Shown here piece after piece: positions 1 to 62,780 of a stretch of DNA of 64,000 nucleotides. The notes under the pieces were generated by a model. That model ran no database searches and was not told where the DNA came from. It saw only the letters and a list, made by a program, of their open reading frames with translations. Both the position numbers and the translations under genes were made by a program. The first letter of the stretch is position 1. Each line of letters opens with the position of its first letter. Source of the stretch: a virus (Duplodnaviria > Heunggongvirae > Uroviricota > Caudoviricetes); IMG/VR virus record IMGVR_UViG_3300032272_000001, positions 39,273 to 103,272 of that record; one strand, 5' to 3'.

Positions 1-2
1 AT

Positions 3-287
3 GTTTTTAAATATTGTGAAGATGAAATACTTGTAGAATTAAAACAATATCTTGTTTCTACATATGGTGAGCATTATGTGTCAACAGATTCTAAATTAGA
101 ATGTTTTGATGCATGGATTGCTCTTGGTGAATCTGGACCAACATTTCGAAATACTGCTATGAAATATTTATGGAGATATGGTAAGAAAAACGGAAAGAAT
201 AAAAAAGATCTTATGAAAGCTATGCAATATGTGATGATGTTGTTGTATGTTGAACATTATAAGGATGAACAAAATGAAAATCAGTGA
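3..287 (+). CDS. Conserved T4-like hypothetical protein (DUF3310-like), 5'-truncated by window
   Basis: Frame is open from nt 3 (VFKYCEDEILVELKQYLVSTYGEHY) into the tracked ORF; KYLWRYGKK..DLMKA motif. Confidence 0.6.
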   Translation, partial: VFKYCEDEILVELKQYLVSTYGEHYVSTDSKLECFDAWIALGESGPTFRNTAMKYLWRYGKKNGKNKKDLMKAMQYVMMLLYVEHYKDEQNENQ

Positions 288-621
288 ATTCATCAAAAAG
301 CTTGAAGAAGTAATGGAGCGAGACGGCGACTTGGATGTAGTATTTGAAGATCATTATGATTATGTAACAGATCCAAACGATCTTGAAAAAGCAGAAAACT
401 ACGATACTTATTGGCAGTTAAAAGAAACTGCAAAATTTGTTAATCATGTTCGACCACCAACATCAGATTACGACAGAATAAAAAAAGAATGTCACTTTGC
501 TGAACATGATAATTATGATCTCATGTTACGAGACATGAATAAAAAATATGGAAAAGATAAAACGGTTGGTGATATTTACATTTCGTACATACCCAACGGC
601 ACGTTTTATCTATCACTTTAA
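277..621 (+). CDS. Hypothetical protein
   Basis: ORF track 247..621; downstream MKISEF start likelier. Confidence 0.5.
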   Translation, partial: KISEFIKKLEEVMERDGDLDVVFEDHYDYVTDPNDLEKAENYDTYWQLKETAKFVNHVRPPTSDYDRIKKECHFAEHDNYDLMLRDMNKKYGKDKTVGDIYISYIPNGTFYLSL

Positions 622-629
622 GGAACAAA

Positions 630-1184
630 ATGAAAATTTATTTTATAGATAGAAATCAAGATATTATTAATGCATTAATGGATGAATATCAAAGTTCGCC
701 AACAACTGGTATGCCGTGGGCTTTTGATGCACAAATGCATGTTGGTGATATACTTGAAAACAATGTTGATTCATTCGTTTCTCCTGCTAATTCTATTGGT
801 AATATGGATGGTGGAATTGATCGTTATTATAGCGAAACCTTTGGTTGGGATCTTAGTGAAAGATTGAAAGAAAAAATTAATAATAGAAATTTTTATGGCG
901 AGCTGTTGGTCGGTGAAGCACTTGTGGTAGAGACAAACAATGAAAACTTTCCATTCATGATTTCTGCACCAACAATGAGAACACCAAGAATTCTTGGTGA
1001 TGCTGGATCTGAAAATGTTTTTCTTGCTACAAGAGCTGCTATGACAGCTGCATATGAATATGGTTTTAATAGTATAGCAATTCCTGGTATGGGTACTGGT
1101 GTTGGTGGTGTTCCTGTTAAAGGCGCAGCTTTTTCTATGCTGTGTGGATGTCAAGCAGCAACATTAAAATTTAATAATACATAA
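630..1184 (+). CDS. Macrodomain (ADP-ribose binding/hydrolase, T4 Tk.4-like)
   Basis: GDI..VSPANSIGNMDGGID, SAPTM, SIAIPGMGTGVGG motifs. Confidence 0.9.
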   Translation: MKIYFIDRNQDIINALMDEYQSSPTTGMPWAFDAQMHVGDILENNVDSFVSPANSIGNMDGGIDRYYSETFGWDLSERLKEKINNRNFYGELLVGEALVVETNNENFPFMISAPTMRTPRILGDAGSENVFLATRAAMTAAYEYGFNSIAIPGMGTGVGGVPVKGAAFSMLCGCQAATLKFNNT

Positions 1185-1221
1185 AAATTGTTTGAATATA
1201 AAATAATGGAGACTAAAATAT

Positions 1222-3318
1222 ATGGGCTTTGAACTTAATGTTAATATTGAAGAATTAGCGAAATCAAGAAAATTATTTATTGCTACTCCTATGTACGGTG
1301 GAATGAATGCAGGAATGTATACTAGATCGATGATTGAATTGGTCAATATGCTTACAAGAATGGGTATTCCTCATGTTCCGTATTTTTTGTTTAATGAAAG
1401 TTTGATCACAAGAGCTAGAAATTACTGCTGTGACGTTTTCATGAGATCAGATTGTACACATATGATTTTTATTGATAGTGATATTGGTTTCAATCCAAAT
1501 GATGTGATTGCATTGCTTGCTATGCAAGATGATGATAGTGAATATGATATTATTGGTGGTCCTTATCCTAAGAAATGTATCTCTTGGGAAAAAATTAAGA
1601 CTGCCGTTGATAAAGGGTTTGCTGATGAAGATCCAAATCAATTAGAAAATTTTGTTGGTGATTTTGTTTTTAATCCAAAATCTGGCTCGGAAAGAATTGC
1701 TATTGGTGAACCAGCTGAAGTTTTAGAAATTGGTACTGGTTTCATGATGGTGCGAAGAAAAACACTTGAAATCATGAACGAAAAAATGCCACATTTGCTG
1801 TATAGACCAGATCATATTCGTACAGCCGATTTTGATGGGTCTCGGGAAATCATGATGTATTTCCAAGCAGAAATAGATTCTCCTACTGCTGATCAGCAAC
1901 TAATGCCTTTGATGAAACAAATTGCAGAAGGATCTGTTGATGATCCAGAACAAGAAATGCAAGAGGCTTTAGTAGCATATGAAGATATGAGAAATAAATC
2001 TTCTAAACGATATTTGTCCGAAGATTATTGGTTTTGCGCTCATAGCCAAACACAAATAGAAACGCCAGAAGGAACACGAACAATAAAAAATATTGTTGAT
2101 ACAAAATATTCTGGACCAGTATTATCAGTTGATGCTGATGGAAATTGTGTTTGGAGAAATGTTATTAATTGGTGGTCGAAACCAAACGGAAAAAGAGGTA
2201 GGCCAGAAACCAAAAAAACATGGGTAACTTTTGATACTGATTGTGATAATAACACAAAAAGTAAACCAAAAGTAACATCAGATCATAGAGTATCATATTT
2301 TGATGATTTGTTTAATCCGCAAATCAAATATATTGAAGCGAAAAATATGACTAATAAATTTTCTATTCGTAAACCACAACGAACCGAAAATCCTTTGTAT
2401 TCTACAGATCAAATTTCTATGTTGGTTGGTACTCTTCTTGGGGATTCTTCTATAGGAAAACAAGGGCAACTTACATGCCAACATTCTGATACACAAAAAG
2501 ATTATATTGAATTAAAAGCCAAGATTTTTGGTGGTAAATTTAGTGGTCCTGTAAAACAGAATGGATTTGGTGAAGGTAAATTCAAATATGTTATGCACGC
2601 TCCCATTAACGCACATACACGAAAATTCCGTGAATTGATGTATCGTGATGGTATTAAGCGCATTGACAAAATTATTGATATGATTGATGAGAAATCTTTA
2701 GCTTTTTGGTATATGGATGATGGTTGTTTACATCCTGACGGCGCTGTATATCTTGCAACTAATGGATTTACATTTGAAGAAAATGATCTTATCAAACAAA
2801 AAATGAAAGAACGTTTTGATCTTGATGTGTCTGTTGATACTAAACGGGTTAAATATGATGGGGTTGTTCGTGAGTATCCATCACTTCGTATGAAGAACAA
2901 ATCATCTAAAAAGTTTTTTGATTTGATTGCTCGTTATATTCCATCATTTATGAAATATAAATTACCAACAACACACCACAATCTCAATGATGTGTTTGAT
3001 TATAGTTCGGTAAAATTTCTTGATTTTGCTGCTTCTTATGTGAATAAGGTTCGTGAATTACCAAAACTTTCTAGTAGATTATATGATATTGAAGTGGAAG
3101 ATACACACAATTTCTTTGCATCTGGAACTTTAGTTCATAACTGTCAGAAGGTCCAGGAAATTGGTCTTAAGACGTGGCTATGCCCATGGATGAAAATGAA
3201 CCATGTAGGAACTTATGTGTTTGGTGGGTCTCTTGCTGATTTGGCAAATTTGGGTGTTTCCGCTACGGCCTGTGCTGAAACTATTAAGGCAAATAGAGAA
3301 AAGGCAAAGAAAGTATAA
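1222..3318 (+). CDS. GT-A fold glycosyltransferase-like protein interrupted by an intein
   Basis: IATPMYGG, NESLITRARN, FIDSDI (DxD), GGPYPKK, GTGFMMVRR, SEDYWF|CQK..G..TWLCPWMKMNHVG. Confidence 0.8.
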   Translation: MGFELNVNIEELAKSRKLFIATPMYGGMNAGMYTRSMIELVNMLTRMGIPHVPYFLFNESLITRARNYCCDVFMRSDCTHMIFIDSDIGFNPNDVIALLAMQDDDSEYDIIGGPYPKKCISWEKIKTAVDKGFADEDPNQLENFVGDFVFNPKSGSERIAIGEPAEVLEIGTGFMMVRRKTLEIMNEKMPHLLYRPDHIRTADFDGSREIMMYFQAEIDSPTADQQLMPLMKQIAEGSVDDPEQEMQEALVAYEDMRNKSSKRYLSEDYWFCAHSQTQIETPEGTRTIKNIVDTKYSGPVLSVDADGNCVWRNVINWWSKPNGKRGRPETKKTWVTFDTDCDNNTKSKPKVTSDHRVSYFDDLFNPQIKYIEAKNMTNKFSIRKPQRTENPLYSTDQISMLVGTLLGDSSIGKQGQLTCQHSDTQKDYIELKAKIFGGKFSGPVKQNGFGEGKFKYVMHAPINAHTRKFRELMYRDGIKRIDKIIDMIDEKSLAFWYMDDGCLHPDGAVYLATNGFTFEENDLIKQKMKERFDLDVSVDTKRVKYDGVVREYPSLRMKNKSSKKFFDLIARYIPSFMKYKLPTTHHNLNDVFDYSSVKFLDFAASYVNKVRELPKLSSRLYDIEVEDTHNFFASGTLVHNCQKVQEIGLKTWLCPWMKMNHVGTYVFGGSLADLANLGVSATACAETIKANREKAKKV
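2035..3141 (+). mobile_element. Intein (369 aa) with LAGLIDADG homing endonuclease
   Basis: Starts C (CAHSQTQIET), block B TSDHR, LAGLIDADG blocks VGTLLGDSSI and LAFWYMDDG, block F LYDIEVEDTHNFFA, ends VHN followed by Cys+1. Confidence 0.93.
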
Positions 3319-51823: not shown

Positions 51824-51909
51824 GAGGGTGTGGTGGAACTGGTTTACACAAGGAGCTTAAAACTCCTCGCCCATATGGCTTGCAGGTTCGAATCCTGCCA
51901 CCCTCACCA
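51824..51909 (+). tRNA. tRNA-Leu(UAA), intact, long variable arm, encoded CCA
   Basis: GAGGGTG/CACCCTC acceptor; AGGAG-CTTAAAA-CTCCT anticodon arm; GCAGG-TTCGAAT-CCTGC. Confidence 0.95.
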
Positions 51910-52425: not shown

Positions 52426-53781
52426 TTAAGATTCGTTTGTACTAACACGACCATCAAATTTTTTCTTAATTCTACCTTTAAACTGTTCTTTTAATGTTCC
52501 GTGATTTTTGGGCCATCTTGCACCAAGAAAACGATTTTTGGATATCTTTGTTACATTAACTGTATCTGATTGATTACCTCCAAGAATATGATAATAATCA
52601 TCATCTTCTGAAACATAGAAACCAACATGGCCAGCCCAACCAGATTTTTTTCCTCTCCAGAAAACCATTGTTGCCCCATATTGAGGATTGGTCGGAACAC
52701 CAGCTTTCAACCAATTTCTTGCGCCAAGTGGATTTTTTATTTCTGATTTTATATCATTTGCGCTCCAACAATAATCAACAAATAAGCCACACCAATGAAT
52801 ACTATCTTTGGTATAATAACTTTTAACAAAACCACCAATAGATTTCGCCCATTTAATTATTTTGGGGTTGTTTCCAGATCCACGTACTTCATCTGTTCCC
52901 ATAAGGGCTTTTGCTGTATGCATCCAAGGCACATCACGAACAACATCAGATTCAACATCAGGCAATTCTTCATCAGAAATAACAGATTTATTTTCTTCGA
53001 TTCTATTTTTTGTGTTTGTGTATATTGCTTTATAAAGTATTTTTGCTCCACAAACAATAAAATTAAAAACAGCTAATAGACACGTCATCCAATTATGATA
53101 ATTTCGTGTTTTTGGTATGTAGTCAATTTCTTCTGAAGGTTCTAATTCTTCTTGAATTTCTTCTTCATAATCTGTACCAATTATTTTGATGCAATCTTCT
53201 AATTCTGGTTTATATCGTTTGTTTATGATGTTGCTTTTGATTCTATCGCTCAATGTTCTGAGATTTTTTACATAGCAACTACGCTCATTATACAAATTGA
53301 ATAGTTGTTTTTCTATATCATTCGGAACACCAGAATATGCCGCAGCAGAAACAATTTTATTTGCACCACCATGTTGTACAGAAATAGAAAATAGAGCTTC
53401 TTGTATCGCTCGATCATTAATATAAAATCCTAATTTTTCAGCATGATTTTTTACTGGCAAATAATGTGTGGTTGCATAAAATACTTTTTGTGCGTATTCA
53501 AATCCTTCTGGATCTGATTTTGCTATCTGTTTGTAGATTTTATTGAAATTTTTTGTTCCTGGCTTGAAATTATTAAATTTCTTAGCATAAGGTTCCCCCC
53601 ATTTGCTTTCAAGAAATTTCCCCATAGAATATGCTGAACTGAGTTGATGGACTCCATATGATTGTCCACCAGGATCGCCCCAATCGTCACCATTAGATAT
53701 AAATTCTACACCTCTACCACCAGATTCATATTTTGCTGATATGAAACCAAAATCTTTATGAAATTTCATCGCATTCTCCAT
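52426..53781 (-). CDS. Two-domain peptidoglycan hydrolase: lysozyme-like N-domain plus NlpC/P60-CHAP (TIGR02594-like) C-domain
   Basis: SAKYESG..GDDWGDPGGQSYGVHQ; PWM..A..L.G..E, HWCGLFV, GHVGFY, ILGGNQSDTV. Confidence 0.85.
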   Translation of the reverse strand: MENAMKFHKDFGFISAKYESGGRGVEFISNGDDWGDPGGQSYGVHQLSSAYSMGKFLESKWGEPYAKKFNNFKPGTKNFNKIYKQIAKSDPEGFEYAQKVFYATTHYLPVKNHAEKLGFYINDRAIQEALFSISVQHGGANKIVSAAAYSGVPNDIEKQLFNLYNERSCYVKNLRTLSDRIKSNIINKRYKPELEDCIKIIGTDYEEEIQEELEPSEEIDYIPKTRNYHNWMTCLLAVFNFIVCGAKILYKAIYTNTKNRIEENKSVISDEELPDVESDVVRDVPWMHTAKALMGTDEVRGSGNNPKIIKWAKSIGGFVKSYYTKDSIHWCGLFVDYCWSANDIKSEIKNPLGARNWLKAGVPTNPQYGATMVFWRGKKSGWAGHVGFYVSEDDDYYHILGGNQSDTVNVTKISKNRFLGARWPKNHGTLKEQFKGRIKKKFDGRVSTNES

Positions 53782-53861
53782 TAATATTCTTGCCTATACA
53801 CCTCATATATTTATCTTGACAGAGATATTAAGCAATGATAATATATGAATGAATTCAAAAA

Positions 53862-54119
53862 ATGAGGAATATTATGTATACAGCACCACAAAAAGATTGC
53901 ACAGAAGCTTTATCTAGATGTGTGGGTAGACGAAAAAAGAAATTAAATTGTTCATGGAATGATGCATTCACATCACTTATTCGTGAACAAAAATACGAAA
54001 CAGTCGATGATGAAATTAAAACTTACCTATCCTGCAATTTTGGTATTGACGAACAATCTGCAAATGATATACTTAAAAAATACCAACCAACATCATCTGT
54101 TGAGGATAACCACGGCTAG
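53862..54119 (+). CDS. Hypothetical protein behind TTGACA promoter
   Basis: ORF track; TTGACA at 53816. Confidence 0.45.
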   Translation: MRNIMYTAPQKDCTEALSRCVGRRKKKLNCSWNDAFTSLIREQKYETVDDEIKTYLSCNFGIDEQSANDILKKYQPTSSVEDNHG

Positions 54120-54264
54120 GGTTGAGACAGATATGATTTAGCCGATCATTGCTTCTAATGGCATCAAATATTCTCATGGGTGCTTGTCACACGTATCGCG
54201 GCGTGACTGACGGATTGAAAGGGATGTTGGTTGGTATTACTTAATTACAGAAAGGAGTGATGTA

Positions 54265-54450
54265 ATGGCAAGAATGTCAAATCGATATAAGCAACGACGC
54301 AAAGAAGATGCTATACGGAAAAAAATTAAAGCTTTGGAAAAAGAATTGAAATTGGTTTCTCGCGTAGCATTTGATCAACCATATACAAATACTATTATGT
54401 ATAAAGAAACACTTGATAGATATAGAAAAGAAATTTATTATGATGGTTGA
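54265..54450 (+). CDS. Hypothetical protein
   Basis: SD AAAGGAG. Confidence 0.55.
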   Translation: MARMSNRYKQRRKEDAIRKKIKALEKELKLVSRVAFDQPYTNTIMYKETLDRYRKEIYYDG

Positions 54451-54481
54451 TTTTTAGTAGACAATATAAGGAAATTAAAAT

Positions 54482-54715
54482 ATGATTGAAGAATCGAAAT
54501 CTCCGACATCACCAGTCGGACGCAAATCTTCTGGGTATATAACACCTTCTAGTAATACTGTGTTGTATGATACAAAAAAAGAGGTGATCAAGAGTCAATT
54601 AAATATTGATATTTTACTTGACGAAATCGATCGTTTGCGTGTAGAAAACAAATTAATGCATGAGTTTTTGTTTAGTATGGATTTGATATCCTCATATACG
54701 AAAAGCAAAGAATAA
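54482..54715 (+). CDS. Hypothetical protein
   Basis: ORF track with SD. Confidence 0.5.
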   Translation: MIEESKSPTSPVGRKSSGYITPSSNTVLYDTKKEVIKSQLNIDILLDEIDRLRVENKLMHEFLFSMDLISSYTKSKE

Positions 54716-54759: not shown

Positions 54760-56703
54760 ATGAACTTCGATAAAATGCTTAGTGTTAAAGACAATAAAGA
54801 TTCTAACCTTCTTGGATGGTCAGAATATTTTGATCTGTGCAAAAAAGATCCGATGACTTATGCGTCGGCATCAGAACGAATGGTTGATGCTATTGGAGAA
54901 CCAGTGTTGGTTGATACTGCAAAAGATCCTCGACTATCGAGAATTTTTACTAATCGCACTATCCGACAATATCCTGCATTCGAGGATTTTTATGGTATGG
55001 AAAACACCATCGAAAATGTTGTTGGTTTTTATCGACATGCTGCGCAAGGCTTGGAAGAGCGAAAGCAAGTTCTTTATCTGCTTGGTCCTGTTGGTGGCGG
55101 CAAATCTTCATTGGCGGAACGTCTCAAAGAATTGATGGAAGTTCATCCAATTTATGTTCTTGTAACAGAAGATGGTCGTGTTTCACCAATTTTTGAAAGT
55201 CCTCTTGGTCTTGTTCAAGATCCAGCTATGCGCAAAAAAATCTCAGAAGAATATAATATTCCTATGCGATATTTTGGTCAAATCCCTTCACCTTGGGCAG
55301 TTAAACGCCTAGAAGAATTTGAAGAATCTGGTGGTGGTACAGCAAACTTTAAAATTATGCGTATGAAACCATCAAAGTTGCAACAGGTGGGTGTGTCTAA
55401 AACCGAACCAGGCGATGAAAATAATCAAGATATTTCATCTTTGGTTGGCAAAGTTGATATTCGTATGCTTGAAGCGTTTAGTCAAAGCGATACAGATGCT
55501 TATTCGTATTCTGGTGGCCTCAACAGAACCACACAGGGAATGTTGGAATTTGTCGAAATGTTCAAAGCACCGATTAAGATGCTGCATCCATTGCTGACAG
55601 CAACACAAGAAGGCAATTATGTTGGTACAGAATCTGGTGCTGCTATGCCTTATGATGGTACTATTCTTGCGCACTCTAATGAAAGTGAATGGAAACAATT
55701 TCGTTCAAACAAAAACAATGAAGCCTTTCTTGACAGAATTTGTGTTGTGAAAGTTCCTTATTGTCTTCGTGTTTCTGATGAAATCAAAGTATATGAAAAA
55801 ATGATTAGTTCTTCTAGTCTTGAAGGATCGCCGTGTGCGCCAATGACTCTAGAAATGCTAGCCCGTTTTTCTGTTCTTTCGCGTCTTATTGAACACGAAA
55901 ATTCAACCATGTATTCTAAAATGCAAGTATATGATGGTGAAGATCTTAGGGAAAGCGATCCGCGTGCAAAATCAATGCAGGAATATCGTGATATTGCTGG
56001 TGTTGATGAAGGCATGAGCGGGCAATCTACTAGATTTGCATATAAGGTTTTGTCAAAAACCTTTAACTTCGATCCAGATGAAGTTGCGGCAGATCCTGTT
56101 CATTTGATGAGTGTTTTGGAAGAATCTGTTCGGAAAGAACAGTTTCAAGAAGAAACGGAAGTTAAATTGGTGTCTTTCATTAAACGAGAACTTGCGGAAA
56201 AATATTCTGAATTCTTGGGCAATGAAATCCAAAAAGCTTATCTTGAAAGTTATGCTGAGTTTGGACAAAACCTATTCATGCGTTATCTAGATTATGCTGA
56301 TGCATGGGTACAAAACAATGACTATAAAGATCCAGATACTGGTCTATTGCTTAATAGAGATGCTATTAATGCAGAACTTGAAAAGATCGAAAAAGCTGGT
56401 AATATTGGTAATCCAAAGGATTTCCGAAACGATGTTGTTGGTTTCTGTATTCGAGCCAAAGCCAAAACTGGTAAAGATGTTCAATGGACAGAATATGCCA
56501 CAATGCGTGATGTGATCGAAAAACGTATGTTTGGTCAACTAGAAGATCTTTTGCCGGTTATTTCATTCGGCGCGAAGAAAGATAGCGAAACTGACAAGAA
56601 ACATAGTGATTATGTCCAACGGATGGTTGATCGTGGTTATACGCCAAAACAAGTTCGTCGATTGAGCGAATGGTTTATGAGGGTCAGAAAATCTAGCAGC
56701 TAA
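54760..56703 (+). CDS. prkA: PrkA/YeaG-family AAA+ protein (annotated Ser kinase)
   Basis: HAAQGLEERKQVLYLLGPVGGGKSSL, KTEPGDENNQDIS.LVGKVDIR, EFVEMFKAPIK.LHPLL. Confidence 0.95.
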   Translation: MNFDKMLSVKDNKDSNLLGWSEYFDLCKKDPMTYASASERMVDAIGEPVLVDTAKDPRLSRIFTNRTIRQYPAFEDFYGMENTIENVVGFYRHAAQGLEERKQVLYLLGPVGGGKSSLAERLKELMEVHPIYVLVTEDGRVSPIFESPLGLVQDPAMRKKISEEYNIPMRYFGQIPSPWAVKRLEEFEESGGGTANFKIMRMKPSKLQQVGVSKTEPGDENNQDISSLVGKVDIRMLEAFSQSDTDAYSYSGGLNRTTQGMLEFVEMFKAPIKMLHPLLTATQEGNYVGTESGAAMPYDGTILAHSNESEWKQFRSNKNNEAFLDRICVVKVPYCLRVSDEIKVYEKMISSSSLEGSPCAPMTLEMLARFSVLSRLIEHENSTMYSKMQVYDGEDLRESDPRAKSMQEYRDIAGVDEGMSGQSTRFAYKVLSKTFNFDPDEVAADPVHLMSVLEESVRKEQFQEETEVKLVSFIKRELAEKYSEFLGNEIQKAYLESYAEFGQNLFMRYLDYADAWVQNNDYKDPDTGLLLNRDAINAELEKIEKAGNIGNPKDFRNDVVGFCIRAKAKTGKDVQWTEYATMRDVIEKRMFGQLEDLLPVISFGAKKDSETDKKHSDYVQRMVDRGYTPKQVRRLSEWFMRVRKSSS

Positions 56704-56759
56704 TACATAATGGGGGCTACGGCCCCCATTTCATCATAAAGTATATTGGAGAATATGAT

Positions 56760-58040
56760 ATGTCTGTTATAATTGATCGGCGAAAAAACGCCCGCGCGAA
56801 AACACTTAGAAATCGATCTCGCTTTATTGATCTGCACAGAAAACAGATCAAAGATGGTGTAAAGGATATTTTGAAAGATGCTAACATCACTGATGTGGGC
56901 ACAAAAAAACAAATTAAAGTAAAACCTTTGTCTAAACCATCTTTTAGACATCAAAGAGGTTCTGGTGATGAGAAATATGTTCTTCCTGGAAATGAAGAAT
57001 ATGTGAAGGGTGATAAGCGACGAAAGAAACCACCAGGCGGTGATGAAAAAGGATATTCTGGAGAAGGTGAAGATGATTTCACTTTTGATTTGACAGAAGA
57101 AGAATTCATGGATTTTGTGTTTGAGTATCTGGAATTGCCAGATATGGTTAAAAAAACCATGCGTGATGTAAAACAATATGATATGCAACGCGCTGGCTTT
57201 AAAATCACTGGAACTCCGAACCAAATGGATTATAAACGATCCATGATTAATTCTATTGGCAGAAGGCTTGCACTAAAACGGCCAAAACAAGAAGATATCG
57301 ATAAGATTGAAGAAGCTATCGAAAATTGTACTGATAAAAATGAAATTATTAGGCTCGAAGAAGTATTGAAAGCTATGCGGAAACGGAAGGGTTCTATTCC
57401 ATTTATAGATCCTTTTGATATTAAGTATCGCAATTTCGAAAAGCATCCTCGACCACGAACAAAAGCAGTTATGATGTGTTTGATGGATGTGTCTTTTTCT
57501 ATGTCAAAACAAGATAAGATGATTGCAAAATCATTTTTTATGTTGTTGAGAATATTTTTGAAAAAGAAATACGATGCTGTTGATATTCGTTTTATTAGTC
57601 ATCACGAAACAGCAAAAGAAGTTGATGAGCATGAATTCTTTTATAGTCAAGAATCTGGCGGAACGTGCGTATCTAGTGCATATGAAGAAGCAAATAAAAT
57701 AATCAAAGATGATTATAATTTGAATGATTGGAATGTTTATGTTGCTCAAGCTTCTGATGGAGACAATGCACCATCAGATTATGCGCACATGACAGATGAA
57801 TTAATTAAATTGCTTGACGTGAGTCAGTATTTCGCTTATATTCAAACTGTTTCGAGCGATAATATGAATAATTTGTATTATGGTTATATGCCATCAGATA
57901 CTGGTGTATGGAAACATCTAGAAGATATGCGAACCACAGAACCGAAAATCAACATGAAACAAGCTAGTAATATACAGGATGTTTGGACTGTATTTACAGA
58001 ATTGTTTAAGAAAGGCAAAAATCGTGACACTCTTGTTTGA
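56760..58040 (+). CDS. yeaH: YeaH/YhbH (UPF0229) vWA-domain protein
   Basis: IIDRR, PGNEEY..GD, EEEFMDFVFE.LELP, CLMDVSFSM, ESGGT.VSSA, YVAQASDGDN. Confidence 0.93.
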   Translation: MSVIIDRRKNARAKTLRNRSRFIDLHRKQIKDGVKDILKDANITDVGTKKQIKVKPLSKPSFRHQRGSGDEKYVLPGNEEYVKGDKRRKKPPGGDEKGYSGEGEDDFTFDLTEEEFMDFVFEYLELPDMVKKTMRDVKQYDMQRAGFKITGTPNQMDYKRSMINSIGRRLALKRPKQEDIDKIEEAIENCTDKNEIIRLEEVLKAMRKRKGSIPFIDPFDIKYRNFEKHPRPRTKAVMMCLMDVSFSMSKQDKMIAKSFFMLLRIFLKKKYDAVDIRFISHHETAKEVDEHEFFYSQESGGTCVSSAYEEANKIIKDDYNLNDWNVYVAQASDGDNAPSDYAHMTDELIKLLDVSQYFAYIQTVSSDNMNNLYYGYMPSDTGVWKHLEDMRTTEPKINMKQASNIQDVWTVFTELFKKGKNRDTLV

Positions 58041-59475
58041 AGATAACAATTGGACACTTGATAAACTTCGTATTGCAGAAGAAGAATGTGCAGAAATTGC
58101 ACTTAAAGAATTGAAATTAGATATCTATCGAAATCAAATCGAAGTTATCAATTCTGATCAAATGTTAGAGGCATATACAAGTGTTGGTATGCCTATTATG
58201 TATGATCATTGGTCTTTTGGTGAACAATATATCAATGAAGAAAAACAATATAGGGAAGGTAAACGTGGTCTTGCCTATGAGATTGTAATGAACACAGATC
58301 CATGCATTTCATTGCTTATGGAAGAAAATTCTATGGCTATGCAGTTACTGGTGATTGCCCACGCGGCCATGGGACACAATCATTTCTTCAAGAACAACTA
58401 TTTGTTCAAAGAATGGACTGATGCAGAAGGTATTGTTGATTATCTTCTGTTTGCTAAAAACTATATCCAAAAACAAGAAGAAATTCATGGTCCTGAAAAT
58501 GTTCGTGAATTGCTAGATGCTCTTCACGCTATTCAAACATATGGTGTGGATCGTTATAAACGACCACCACAACTTAATAAAAAACAAGAAAAGGAAAAAC
58601 AAAAAGAACGATCTGCTTATGTTCAATCACAAGCAAATATTTTGTGGTCAACAATGCCTAATAATACAATTGGTGGCGATTCGATAGATACTTCAAAAAA
58701 AGTACCTAGTGAACCACAAGAAAATCTTTTGTATTTTCTTGAAAAACATTCTCCTATTCTAGAAGAATGGCAACGAGAAATTATTAGAATTGTGAGAAAG
58801 ATTGCGCAATATTTTCATCCTCAACGCCAAACTAAATTGATGAATGAAGGATTTGCGACATCTGTTCATTGGTATATTTTGAATCGTCTTTGGGAACAAG
58901 GAAAAATATCTAATGGATATATGCTAGAAATCATCCATTCTCATGCTGGTGTATTGACACAAAGAAAATTTAATGAACAAGGGTTTTCTGGTTACAATCC
59001 ATATGCTCTAGGATTTTCAATGTTTAAAGATATCAAAGAAAAGGCTGGTGGTGAATGGGTTGATGTGTGGTTGGATGCTGTTGAAAATTATAAGGACGAT
59101 AGCTTCATCAGACAGTTTCTGTCCGAAGAAGTAGTAAAAGAATATAAAATGATGGAAATTTCTAATAAAGAAAAAGATTCTTATATTGAAGTTTCTGGTA
59201 TTCAGAACAAAACAGACTTTGATTCTATCCGTGAAAGTTTGGCTGACAATTATTCTCTTGCGGTGATGCAACCAAATATTGAAATCATTAATGCCAACAT
59301 TACTGGAAATCGATATTTGGAGATGAATCATACATCATATAATGGTTCTAAACTGGATAAAAAAACCATGATCAATACTCTTGCATATATGCATAAACTA
59401 TGGGGATATCCTACAACTATGCAAACTACATATCCAGATGGATCTAAAGTGGTTGATCATATCCATGACATATAA
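58024..59475 (+). CDS. spoVR: SpoVR/YcgB-family protein
   Basis: GMPIMYDHWSFG, GLAYEIVMN.DPC, AHAAMGHNHFFKNN, TKLMNEGFAT. Confidence 0.93.
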   Translation: MTLLFEDNNWTLDKLRIAEEECAEIALKELKLDIYRNQIEVINSDQMLEAYTSVGMPIMYDHWSFGEQYINEEKQYREGKRGLAYEIVMNTDPCISLLMEENSMAMQLLVIAHAAMGHNHFFKNNYLFKEWTDAEGIVDYLLFAKNYIQKQEEIHGPENVRELLDALHAIQTYGVDRYKRPPQLNKKQEKEKQKERSAYVQSQANILWSTMPNNTIGGDSIDTSKKVPSEPQENLLYFLEKHSPILEEWQREIIRIVRKIAQYFHPQRQTKLMNEGFATSVHWYILNRLWEQGKISNGYMLEIIHSHAGVLTQRKFNEQGFSGYNPYALGFSMFKDIKEKAGGEWVDVWLDAVENYKDDSFIRQFLSEEVVKEYKMMEISNKEKDSYIEVSGIQNKTDFDSIRESLADNYSLAVMQPNIEIINANITGNRYLEMNHTSYNGSKLDKKTMINTLAYMHKLWGYPTTMQTTYPDGSKVVDHIHDI

Positions 59476-59863: not shown

Positions 59864-59937
59864 TGTGGATAGCCGAACATGGTGGACGGGCTTGTCTGTT
59901 AAACAAGATACGGTAGGTTCGATTCCTACATCCACAG
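59864..59937 (+). tRNA. Atypical tRNA-Asn(GUU), no encoded CCA
   Basis: CTTGT-CTGTTAA-ACAAG anticodon arm; GTAGG-TTCGATT-CCTAC; acceptor extended into a 21-bp helix. Confidence 0.7.
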
Positions 59938-59983
59938 CACAATAGTTACATTTATATTAACATGAACATAGAGGAATTTTATT

Positions 59984-61851: not shown

Positions 61852-61859
61852 TATAAATA
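61852..61859 (+). promoter_or_regulatory. T4-type late promoter TATAAATA driving tmRNA
   Basis: Exact consensus immediately upstream of the tmRNA acceptor piece. Confidence 0.7.
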
Positions 61860-61864
61860 ACTAA

Positions 61865-62205
61865 TCGTTGATGACGCATCACGAAGCTTGGCTGGACGTG
61901 GGGGCAGTACCCACCAGCTCCACCATAAGAACATTGACTGACGGCGGCGCAACATGGTCCGAATGTCAGTGCCCGACTATATGCCATTCGGAATAGAGCA
62001 TATACAGTCAATGTTCTTTTGATGGGGCTGAAATAGGTTCGACAGTGGGTGTAGGAAATGTAGAGATGATGGGATGGCCGCCTTATAGACTAGTTAGCCA
62101 CTTAATGGCTGTTTAAATGCAAACGATAATAGCATTGAGAACTTCGCCCTAGCTGCGTAGCTTCTCTGAGGCTGCTAGGGAGCCTTATCACCCAATCCCT
62201 AGCAC
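61865..62205 (+). ncRNA. ssrA: Circularly permuted two-piece tmRNA (alphaproteobacterial type); outer ends approximate
   Basis: Acceptor piece first: T arm GTGGG-GGCAGTA-CCCAC, CAGCTCC-ACCA ending 61925. Coding piece starts GGGGCTG at 62024 (G3.U70). Tag ANDNSIENFALAA* at 62119-62160. Confidence 0.93.
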
Positions 62206-62585: not shown

Positions 62586-62608
62586 ATAGAGGAAACTTAA
62601 TAGATTAT

Positions 62609-62679
62609 ATCGGCGTAGTTCAACGGTAGAACGACTGTTTCCAAACCAGTAGATCGGGGTTCGATTCCTCGCGCCTTTG
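62609..62679 (+). pseudogene. Degenerate tRNA, anticodon CCA (Trp)
   Basis: D and T arms intact; acceptor has two mismatches and no CCA. Confidence 0.55.
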
Positions 62680-62705
62680 TCCTTGAAATCACCGATGATT
62701 AATAT

Positions 62706-62780
62706 GCCACATTAGTATAACGACTATTACATCGCTTTTGTAATGCGAAAATTGGGGTTTAATTCCTCAATGTGGCTCCA
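62706..62780 (+). tRNA. tRNA-Thr(UGU) with atypical T loop
   Basis: GCCACAT/ATGTGGC-T-CCA; TCGC(T)-TTTGTAA-(T)GCGA; T loop TTTAATT. Confidence 0.7.

Follow-up and report, generated by a model that had tools for sequence, protein, structure and literature searches.

A PrkA-YeaH-SpoVR module maintained in T4-like phages and its possible role in host protein turnover

The window analysed here, a stretch of 64,000 nucleotides, is part of a 176,134-bp IMG/VR record with 127-bp direct terminal repeats, a GC content of 33% and a CheckV completeness of 100. Genes for a T4-type portal, sheath, baseplate wedge and large terminase were all found in this genome, which is that of a complete T4-like phage from a sediment metagenome. 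Within the window, prkA, yeaH and spoVR are adjacent on the + strand in that order (Table 1), and the order is kept in every related locus whose contig is long enough. T4-like hallmark genes flank the trio on both sides, placing it inside a bona fide complete phage and not in a host flank or a mis-binned contig. A preliminary description had noted three intact, closely spaced genes with their catalytic motifs, carried by a phage. The reading frames, full-length family matches and Walker A and MIDAS motifs bear out the first part, and the complete genome with its terminal repeats and T4-type hallmark genes the second.

Table 1 Features around the prkA-yeaH-spoVR trio (window coordinates).
Feature	Position	Strand	Basis or remark
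tRNA-Leu	51824-51909		ARAGORN, Rfam
VgrG3-C-like lysozyme gene	52426..53781	-	PF21277 at 7e-33; divergent from trio
Putative sigma-70-like promoter, TTGACA-17-TAATAT, TG-extended -10	53816..53844	+	consensus scan 10/12
Three small ORFs (85, 61, 77 aa) between promoter and prkA	53862..54715	+	ORF list
prkA/yeaG, AAA+ ATPase with PrkA C-terminal domain, 647 aa	54760..56703	+	PF08298, PF06798, NF011999, phrog_22605
GC-rich 9-bp hairpin, UACG loop, without U-run	56709..56730	+	directly after prkA stop
yeaH/yhbH (DUF444), 426 aa, conserved N-terminal segment and C-terminal vWA	56760..58040	+	PF04285, NF003707, phrog_19072
spoVR/ycgB, 483 aa from GTG 58024 (498 aa from upstream ATG 57979)	58024..59475	+	PF04293, PF24755
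tRNA-Asn(GUU), first gene of downstream tRNA/tmRNA region	59864..59938	+	ARAGORN, Rfam
Permuted two-piece alphaproteobacterial-type tmRNA, tag ANDNSIENFALAA	61833..62251	+	ARAGORN, Rfam
tRNA-Trp(CCA) and tRNA-Thr(UGU)	62608..62780	+	ARAGORN, Rfam

Four uncultured T4-like contigs carry a trio of the same viral clade, with PrkA 68-80% and SpoVR 56-76% identical to the copies in the window: L052 (JBFPEK010001830.1, 169.7 kb), L053 (JGI Ga0535658_0000340), L134 (JANQRR010000003.1) and L051 (IMGVR_UViG_3300000116_000183). L052 and L134 resemble the window in their flanking lysozyme, SNase, Trans_coact and gp32 genes, the VgrG3-C-like lysozyme gene being the conserved left neighbour of the trio. A permuted tmRNA follows the trio in L052, L053 and L051. 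In the window, the trio lies 0.4-3.3 kb upstream of the tRNA-Asn, tmRNA, tRNA-Trp and tRNA-Thr genes, and the tRNA-Asn after spoVR is also conserved in L052. Differences are found as well: L052 has a GC content of 43% against 33%, in L134 prkA and yeaH are separated by additional genes, a metallophosphatase among them, and in L053 the trio stands beside the baseplate module.

The putative promoter would head a rightward unit holding the trio, and a similar TTGACA promoter stands at the matching place in L052. No TATAAATA late motif was found by motif scan between 53782 and 54760. The three small ORFs between promoter and prkA had no PHROG match.

PrkA matches PF08298 (1e-163, 545 bits, positions 4-357 of 358) and PF06798 (1e-64, 219 bits, positions 1-255 of 255), so that its C-terminal domain is fully retained, and scores 1089.6 bits against the NCBIfam PrkA equivalog NF011999, above the cut-off of 576. 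The closest PDB relative noted is 9xip (E 1.6e-56). The Walker A motif GPVGGGKS occupies residues 109-116; its lysine (K108 in B. subtilis PrkA) is required for ATP binding and hydrolysis (PMC9512850). A gap of 56 nt separates prkA from yeaH and contains the hairpin of Table 1, with a centroid energy of -17.9 kcal/mol (z -3.3 versus shuffles). Hairpins stand at the matching position in phage loci (L052, L053, L051, L027) and in bacterial ones (L059, L003). This element common to phages and bacteria, new here, may serve as an attenuator or stabilise the mRNA, and so set the ratio of PrkA to YeaH and SpoVR.

YeaH is a full-length member of its family as well (PF04285, 5e-133, 444.6 bits, positions 2-417 of 418; NF003707, 460.1 bits with a cut-off of 396). 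Its MIDAS is complete (D243-x-S245-x-S247, T302, D333) and invariant in a 35-sequence alignment. The yeaH stop overlaps the spoVR GTG start by 17 nt, suggesting that the two genes are translationally coupled, a point in favour of a complex between their products. The predicted YeaH-SpoVR complex reached an ipSAE of 0.78, with 0.00 for the best of three controls; among solved complexes, 58 of 80 attain the mark applied to this score, against 2 of 110 mismatched pairs. Three runs had at least 97% of their contacts in common, with partner pLDDT of at least 71. Since no structure of YeaH or SpoVR was found in the PDB, this result does not reproduce a known structure. The N-terminal 110 residues of YeaH are confidently predicted to clasp SpoVR, an arrangement that is new here.

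The GTG start of spoVR is backed by a database-called product of 483 aa. SpoVR matches PF04293 (1e-138, 462.6 bits) and PF24755 (SpoVR_C, 51.1 bits) at full length and above gathering scores. It scores 637.6 bits against NF008737, just below the cut-off of 679, and thus appears to be a divergent member of the family, not an "equivalog" by the NCBI threshold. The fold of the AF2 model (pLDDT 84.8) is similar to that of zincin metallopeptidases, a likeness also new here. Its top 50 VIA-align matches are nearly all zincin peptidases of more than ten families (Z 14.0-6.6), among them DUF885 3o0y (Z 14.0, rmsd 3.6, 196 residues aligned), LTA4H (Z 11.4), M32 (Z 10.3) and thermolysin (Z 8.9), scores to be read knowing that a chance Z of about 14 is attainable for helical models.

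These zincins (gluzincins: DUF885 3o0y and 3iuk, M1 aminopeptidases including LTA4H, M32, M3 and thermolysin) are structural analogues of SpoVR only. In the model, residues ~5-380 align with them (Z 14.0-8.9), and the beta-sheet, a His-bearing helix and a Glu-bearing helix are predicted to follow in the same order. The invariant residues H113, H118 and E152 lie on helices after the beta-sheet, in zincin order. Unlike zincins, SpoVR has no HExxH motif, and no sequence-level similarity to zincin peptidases was found, nor any Foldseek match of the model in the PDB. The corresponding element is an invariant H-A-x-x-G-H (H113-A-A-x-G-H118; H-x4-H) with an alanine in place of the catalytic glutamate. 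SpoVR may therefore be a pseudo-peptidase or have another chemistry.

The nearest relatives of the trio are other phage contigs (PrkA 80%, SpoVR 76% identity), and PrkA finds its best matches, of 80% and 72% identity, in T4-like contigs that have neighbouring genes in common with the window. SpoVR is present in 97 of 401 sampled Pseudomonadota genomes, in none of them above 51% identity to the phage copy. A phylogeny against host copies had been suggested in the preliminary description; the PrkA and SpoVR trees agree in placing the window within an all-viral clade (SpoVR: 88 rows, clade of 8, support 100; PrkA: 56 rows, congruent clade of 9, support 99). Compared with L052, the trio genes of the window have dN values of 0.15-0.24, and the phage lysozyme and helicase genes beside them values of 0.35-0.39; dS is saturated. 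The GC3 of the trio (0.23-0.27) is phage-like. Columns at least 97% invariant among bacterial homologues are largely kept: 295 of 329 in PrkA, 80 of 91 in YeaH and 112 of 135 in SpoVR. Overall, the trio was not recently captured and evolves more slowly than neighbouring phage genes; judged from these comparisons, purifying selection acts on it and it is passed on as a whole. An acquisition from bacteria long ago, the closest cellular type being proteobacterial, followed by inheritance as a unit, would account for this history.

The bacterial modules, yeaG-yeaH-ycgB in E. coli and prkA-yhbH-spoVR in Bacillus, match the phage trio in families, order, full-length domains, Walker A, MIDAS and hairpin. 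Closest is the proteobacterial single operon (e.g. Azospirillum, Hyphomicrobiaceae, Ectothiorhodospira). Phage PrkA is 65-69% identical to alphaproteobacterial copies, whereas for YeaH and SpoVR the identity with bacterial copies is only 37-51%. Unlike the bacterial module, the trio resides in the genome of a lytic-type T4-like phage and falls in a separate viral clade. It is probably driven by an early or sigma-70-like phage promoter, whereas the bacterial module is regulated by RpoS, NtrC or sporulation sigma factors (PMC13684143, 10.1101/254623).

Phage-borne trios are already in public records, including those of isolate phages. In the Thermus phage phiYS40, YS40_056-059 are annotated as "conserved bacterial protein", SpoVR, hypothetical and "serine kinase", in a gene order that differs from that of the window. 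The Ralstonia jumbo phage RsoM2USA (ORF30-28) and the huge-phage records LR745206, LR756502 and LR756504 have PrkA with adjacent YeaH and SpoVR, and PHROGs families exist for the deposited phage trios (22605, 19072, 35217). These belong to other phage groups, and their copies are distant (PrkA 52% identical in RsoM2USA, 25% in Thermus phages). In contrast, the trio of the window has a T4-like backbone and a permuted tmRNA nearby.

What such a module does can be approached from bacterial genetics. In six bacteria, each of the three genes has the other two as its strongest cofitness partners (10.1101/072470). In E. coli, YeaG is required for non-specific, starvation-induced bulk proteolysis of cytoplasmic proteins, according to a 2026 PNAS study that concerned yeaG alone in E. 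coli alone, direct proteolysis by the complex not being part of its result (PMC13684143). The earlier suggestion of a role in the proteostasis of starved hosts fits both observations. Our favoured reading, to which we give somewhat less than even chances, is that the trio is a functional, long-resident auxiliary module for ATP-driven turnover or remodelling of host proteins in starved hosts. PrkA would be the ATP-driven AAA+ motor. YeaH would act as an adaptor, with its N-terminal ~110 residues on SpoVR and its MIDAS/vWA domain free for PrkA or clients, and SpoVR would be the zincin-like, probably metal-dependent effector subunit. The unit would be transcribed from the host-type promoter, likely early in infection, the hairpin probably tuning subunit ratios. 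The complex could then turn over or remodel the cytoplasmic proteins of the host in bulk, providing amino acids and energy for the phage in nutrient-starved sediment hosts. Proteolytic chemistry, expression timing and benefit to the phage are the parts of this scheme that we infer.

A bolder version, which we hold possible but rather unlikely, takes PrkA, YeaH and SpoVR for an unrecognised three-part ATP-dependent protease (AAA+ unfoldase, vWA adaptor and zincin-like H-x4-H...E peptidase). Diverse phages, this T4-like lineage among them, would carry it to degrade the proteome of starved hosts in bulk, in the manner of autophagy; in some alphaproteobacterial phages it would sit beside a tmRNA as one element of a larger recycling toolkit. 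In line with the favoured turnover reading, purified PrkA by itself has weak (PMC9512850) or no (PMC13001217) protease activity, which is what a peptidase on another subunit would lead one to expect. The YeaH N-terminal clasp and the zincin-like SpoVR suggest a concrete, testable architecture on the models obtained, which could explain this low activity.

Among bacterial stress modules without a mechanism, the trio is one of the most widespread. The long retention of phage copies under strong constraint indicates that it functions by itself in a cell that expresses it, which makes the phage versions convenient and compact material for reconstitution. If the turnover reading is true, large phages in nutrient-poor habitats mine host protein for building blocks by their own means.

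Other roles were weighed against turnover. A specific remodelling or maturation chaperone of the MoxR-vWA kind would act on one particular complex of the host or the phage, such as a protein of defence or stress response, by metal insertion, activation, dismantling or inactivation. The combination of AAA+ with MIDAS/vWA is typical of the chaperone pairs RavA-ViaA, CbbQ-CbbO and NorQ-NorD and counts for such a role, as do the missing catalytic Glu of SpoVR and the species-dependent phenotypes of bacterial mutants. However, the proteins that E. coli loses through YeaG are many and lost without specificity, which speaks against a single client, and no conserved client gene stands beside the trio in the phage or bacterial loci compared. 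We regard this role as unlikely. Less likely still is control of signalling or dormancy, with PrkA as a Ser/Thr kinase that, with YeaH and SpoVR as partners, phosphorylates host proteins and thereby steers or blocks the host starvation and dormancy programme, allowing the infection to go on. E. coli YeaG autophosphorylates and phosphorylates casein according to a report cited in 10.1101/072470, bacterial mutants have starvation and nitrogen-source phenotypes, and the phage protein keeps the whole PF06798 domain. Against this, neither kinase nor autophosphorylation activity was found in two independent studies, in which the C-terminal P-loop proved degenerate (PMC9512850, PMC13001217), and a zincin-like SpoVR would be left unexplained. 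Because the kinase activity is thus disputed, the preliminary proposal that the phage reprograms dormancy is not favoured in the form of such signalling.

It is extremely improbable that the genes are passenger DNA or artefactual, whether captured recently by accident, joined on in a chimeric assembly or brought in by bacterial contamination, and have no role for the phage. Such cases do occur: the IMG/VR "viral" trio contigs L015 (GC 0.67) and L029 (GC 0.55) nest in bacterial clades and are probably bacterial, and the "phage" LAU1 record simply includes a host yeaG-yeaH at its end. For the window, however, terminal repeats that close the genome, phage-matching GC3, synteny common to at least four other T4-like contigs, viral nearest homologues and a dN below that of neighbouring phage genes effectively refute it. 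A last reading joins the trio and the phage tmRNA in one unit, the tmRNA tagging stalled host or phage chains and the trio processing or degrading the tagged products; we consider it improbable. The tmRNA itself is well matched (RF04321, 94.6 bits over 61863-62160; RF01849, 63.3 bits). The members of the sub-clade of the window (window, L052, L053, L051) have trio, tRNA and tmRNA in this order on one strand, with an intervening 0.8-15 kb, and the order is also found in a second T4-like trio lineage (L027, L028, L032, G470, G486). On the other hand, the tmRNA has its own TATAAATA motif at 61852 and is therefore a separate transcription unit, and neither SmpB nor ClpP, both looked for, is encoded by the phage. 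ALAA-type tags are read by ClpXP in known systems, which also counts against such a unit. Among 33 viral records with a permuted tmRNA, 31 lack PrkA and only 2 have it. No tmRNA accompanies the trio of G029-G031, complete phages of 46 kb, or that of the 215-kb G027 (91% complete), and the complete 172-kb T4-like G494, whose portal is 46% identical to that of this phage, has a tmRNA without PrkA. The preliminary idea of a trio acting in concert with tmRNA tagging, and the co-occurrence with phage ssrA proposed as a check on it, thus hold in part: the block is conserved and jointly carried in two T4-like lineages, but complete phages exist with either element alone. Given these single-element phages, the linkage looks like common synteny and host range, not a functional requirement.

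The three ORFs that the preliminary description had called as prkA, yeaH and spoVR are present at the coordinates given there, on the + strand, and each is matched by its Pfam families over the full length. PrkA and YeaH exceed the NCBIfam equivalog cut-offs, and SpoVR lies slightly below its own (637.6 bits for a cut-off of 679). For spoVR, the GTG at 58024 is a likelier start than 57979, because it is preceded by an AAAGG box, overlaps the yeaH stop by 17 nt, corresponds to the database-called product of 483 aa and coincides with the position where homologue N-termini align. When set against 41-51 bacterial homologues, the phage proteins keep 295 of 329 (PrkA), 80 of 91 (YeaH) and 112 of 135 (SpoVR) near-invariant columns, defined as at least 97% invariant. 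The residues kept include the PrkA Walker A motif (GPVGGGKS) and the full YeaH MIDAS.

Features of the rightward unit carrying the trio and of the adjoining tRNA/tmRNA region (window coordinates)
Feature	Position	Strand	Description
Sigma-70-like promoter	53816-53844	+	TTGACA-17-TAATAT, extended -10; heads the rightward unit, just past the divergent lysozyme gene
prkA	54760-56703	+	647 aa; Pfam AAA_PrkA and PrkA C-terminal domain, full-length
Hairpin	56709-56730		9-bp G/C stem, UACG loop; in the 56-nt prkA-yeaH gap, directly after the prkA stop codon
yeaH	56760-58040	+	426 aa; Pfam DUF444, full-length
spoVR	57979-59475	+	498 aa if started at 57979, 483 aa from the GTG at 58024; Pfam SpoVR and SpoVR_C, full-length
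tRNA-Asn			389 nt downstream of spoVR
Permuted alpha-type tmRNA			2.4 kb downstream of spoVR; RF04321, 94.6 bits; tag ANDNSIENFALAA
tRNA-Trp, tRNA-Thr			downstream of the tmRNA

The 176,134-bp IMG/VR record, of which the window spans bases 39273-103272, has direct terminal repeats (127 bp, exact) and a CheckV completeness of 100. Its GC content is 33.3%, and 201 of its 265 ORFs are on one strand. PHROGs identify T4-type genes for the portal (phrog_213, 1e-184), the tail sheath, gp6-, gp7- and gp8-like baseplate wedge proteins and the large terminase. The large terminase gene (G000:C1:9378-12131, the same as L004:9378-12131, outside the window) holds a LAGLIDADG homing-endonuclease insertion (phrog_11023, residues 607-791). 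The sole public sequencing run containing the stretch is of sediment metagenome DNA and is probably where it came from; no RNA run is listed as containing it.

By megablast, the trio has no match among deposited phages, and similarity is found at the protein level only. In a collection of 5.8 billion proteins, the top PrkA match (80% identity) lies on L052 (JBFPEK010001830.1), a 169.7-kb NCBI metagenome contig that also has in common with the window a VgrG3-C lysozyme on the opposite strand, a ResIII helicase, SNase, Trans_coact and gp32. The second PrkA match (72%) is on a contig of 74 kb, where it adjoins a baseplate module. The top SpoVR matches are 53-76% identical; the two contigs that were inspected, L134 (JANQRR010000003.1, 86 kb) and L136 (137 kb), both look like phage, and in L134 the gene order around the trio is once more that of the window. 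PrkA is also found at 49-69% identity in 42 IMG/VR loci, followed by YeaH then SpoVR, in the same order, wherever the contig is long enough. Among titled bacterial genomes (Azospirillaceae, Hyphomicrobiaceae, Acetobacteraceae and Ectothiorhodospira), PrkA identity reaches 65-69%, and YeaH and SpoVR of the same genomes are only 37-47% identical. SpoVR occurs in 97 of 401 evenly sampled Pseudomonadota genomes, with an identity never above 51%.

Set against bacterial copies, as the preliminary description had proposed, the window trio groups with viral copies in the trees of both SpoVR (88 rows) and PrkA (56 rows). The two trees are congruent: L052 is the sister of the window (support 98-99), and the two are joined next by L053 (Ga0535658_0000340; 99-100), then by L051 (IMGVR_UViG_3300000116_000183) and L134, then by L010, L012 and L136. 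Together these rows form an all-viral clade, with support of 100 (SpoVR) and 99 (PrkA). In the PrkA tree, this clade stands beside an alphaproteobacterial-type clade, the nearest cellular clade being named from titled bacterial loci alone, and the branch joining the two is unresolved. The congruent viral clades, the shared synteny and the viral nearest matches argue that the trio is an ancient acquisition, passed on as a unit within phages. Between the window and L052, the closest relative, dN is 0.15-0.24 for the trio and 0.35-0.39 for the adjoining phage lysozyme-like and helicase genes, a comparison of dN and not of dN/dS, synonymous sites being saturated. Third-position GC of the trio (0.23-0.27) equals phage values. 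The trio is thus old in the phage lineage and under tighter constraint than the genes beside it.

Several other records carry the genes in different settings. In the SpoVR tree as in the PrkA tree, the trios of two 'viral' IMG/VR contigs, L015 (GC 0.67) and L029 (GC 0.55), nest among bacterial copies, so that the contigs are probably cellular or the capture very recent. Three small IMG/VR phages, neither jumbo nor T4-like (G029, G030 and G031; ~46-48 kb, CheckV 100, two of the three with direct terminal repeats), carry the full trio (L038-L040), and their copies have very long branches in the PrkA and SpoVR trees alike. In Enterobacter phage LAU1 (MN688132.1, L003; 30.8 kb, 'complete phage genome'), bases 1-3308 are yeaG-yeaH of enterobacterial identity adjoining lambdoid tail genes; this is almost certainly host DNA flanking a prophage rather than a module carried by the phage. 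The trio-bearing, T4-like L134 and a contig with a permuted tmRNA and tRNAs (G448:C45) are both binned in the 2.6-Mb bacterial MAG GCA_028284465.1, which also contains a standard one-piece tmRNA; here phage DNA was probably binned together with a non-alphaproteobacterial genome. Unlike several viral copies, PrkA and SpoVR of the window have no inteins. LAGLIDADG inteins split PrkA in L044:8420-11608 (1062 aa) and SpoVR in L027:10720-13062 (780 aa), L032:13274-16045 (923 aa), L044:12917-15328 and L048:4534-6945 (803 aa each). The PrkA intein interrupts the AAA domain, whose downstream piece restarts at position 94 of the 358-position Pfam model, and the SpoVR inteins occupy three separate conserved sites, at model positions ~42, ~84-91 and ~268.

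Carriage of the trio by phages is already known as a presence, though unstudied. Thermus phage phiYS40 has had 'SpoVR' and a 'serine kinase' adjoining a 'conserved bacterial protein' in its annotation since 2006, and in Ralstonia jumbo phage RsoM2USA the trio corresponds to ORF30-28, itemised singly in the phage's paper. PrkA is 55-59% identical in three huge-phage records, all three families are in PHROGs under the label 'unknown function', and spoVR was the most abundant 'sporulation' auxiliary gene of an oxygen-minimum-zone virome (PMC8940887). In the literature, of which our coverage was incomplete, we found no paper in which the trio of phages is treated or tested as one unit, nor any that connects SpoVR with zincins. 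The most useful new leads are a predicted YeaH-SpoVR interface and a zincin-like SpoVR.

Co-folding of SpoVR with YeaH gave an ipSAE of 0.78 (0.78-0.80 in three runs), and three controls all gave 0.00. The runs have at least 97% of contacts in common, with a partner pLDDT of at least 71. Of 80 solved complexes, 58 attain this ipSAE mark, as do 2 of 110 mismatched pairs; the counts are only rough here, because our own alignments were supplied. Since the PDB holds no structure for either family, the prediction does not reproduce a complex that was already solved. On YeaH, the predicted interface involves residues 1-110, where many of its invariant residues are located. On SpoVR, both the zincin-like domain (around H62, E100, H113 and H168) and the C-terminal domain are wrapped. 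The MIDAS/vWA domain of YeaH is left free in the predicted complex.

The AlphaFold2 model of phage SpoVR (pLDDT 84.8, pTM 0.82) matches almost exclusively zincin metallopeptidases among structural representatives, with Z scores of 14.0 for DUF885, ~11 for M1 aminopeptidases/LTA4H and 8.9 for thermolysin, although helical models can score similar Z by chance; M32, M3, M2, M49, M61 and BepA are also matched. In the model, a small β-sheet is followed by a long helix with invariant H113 and H118, then by a helix with invariant E152, the same order of sheet, His helix and Glu helix as in gluzincins. However, the SpoVR motif is H-A-x-x-G-H where zincins have HExxH, and searches of the PDB with the model (Foldseek) and of PDB sequences with the alignment profile gave nothing meaningful. 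Because HExxH is missing, Foldseek is empty and Z may be at chance level for a helical model, we describe the predicted fold as zincin-like and do not call SpoVR a zincin.

The predicted interface, together with the fact that yeaH and spoVR are translationally coupled, suggests a stoichiometric YeaH-SpoVR pair, which would be engaged by a PrkA ring through the vWA domain of YeaH. In published genetics, the three genes are mutual best cofitness partners in six bacteria. [quoted passage not shown] When E. coli starves, it breaks down cytoplasmic proteins with little specificity and so gains amino acids and ATP, a process for which YeaG is needed (PMC13684143). The first interpretation of the phage trio is thus partly supported: a role in the proteostasis of starved hosts is plausible, and action in concert with tmRNA, also proposed, is not demonstrated by the conserved synteny described below.

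Rfam searches, covering 35 trio-bearing records and related loci, show two groups in which the trio is followed by a permuted tmRNA in the same orientation. In the window's sub-clade, spoVR is followed by the tmRNA at 2.4 kb in the window itself, 0.8 kb in L052, 4.6 kb in L053 and 1.7 kb in L051. In a separate trio lineage, the distance from the trio is 7 kb in L027, 15 kb in L028, 9 kb in L032 and 12-13 kb in genome records G470 and G486. The permuted tmRNAs at L052:15548-15780, L053:19334-19570, L169:10923-11136 and L171:8913-9195 were detected by RF04321 (79-121 bits) and missed by ARAGORN. Absence calls from ARAGORN only are unsafe for two-piece tmRNAs, and Rfam is essential. L052 also has, about 3 kb past the trio, an amber-suppressor-like tRNA with anticodon CUA (L052:17881-17955, 'tRNA-Pyl' in ARAGORN).

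Recurrence of this arrangement in two trio lineages would fit a functional coupling of the trio and the phage tmRNA. Yet each is also carried alone by complete phages: the trio occurs without tmRNA in the complete 46-kb phages G029-G031, as well as in a 215-kb record (91% complete), and G494, a complete 172-kb T4-like phage whose portal is 46% identical to that of the window phage, has a tmRNA and no PrkA. In a pattern scan of viral contigs, only 2 of 33 records with a confirmed permuted tmRNA have PrkA. In addition, SmpB and ClpP were not found in the phage, and at 61852 there is a separate late-type motif for the tmRNA. Co-occurrence with the tmRNA, a check suggested in the preliminary description, is seen as joint carriage in two lineages and is not general. 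The trio-tmRNA neighbourhood is best regarded as a conserved syntenic block, not as evidence of joint working.

Phages with this block probably infect alphaproteobacteria. BLAST of the window tmRNA against 401 alphaproteobacterial genomes returned only ~30-nt matches in the T-arm region, too weak to name a host, the best of them in small genomes (0.5-2.8 Mb). In the five of these genomes that were checked, PF08298 matches are only P-loop-level, in ~800-aa proteins, too weak to conclude that the host is without the trio.

The promoter of the rightward unit is followed by three small ORFs, then by the trio, and a comparable TTGACA promoter is found at the same place in L052. The T4 late motif TATAAATA does not occur between 53782 and prkA, and the window as a whole shows no enrichment of it, with 9 copies for 13 expected. 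BLAST for a repeated early-promoter consensus of the phage upstream of the trio returned the self-match only. Since a sigma-70-like promoter is present and the late motif absent upstream of prkA, we infer that the trio would be expressed early or in the middle of infection.

The hairpin after prkA has a centroid energy of -17.9 kcal/mol (z = -3.3 relative to shuffles). L052, L053, L051 and L027 likewise have a hairpin directly after prkA, as do bacterial L059 and L003 (Azospirillum and Enterobacter), so that across phage and bacterial operons its position is conserved and its sequence is not. The hairpin of L027 carries a U-run, as intrinsic terminators do. The shared position of the hairpin hints at a conserved means of producing PrkA in excess of YeaH and SpoVR.
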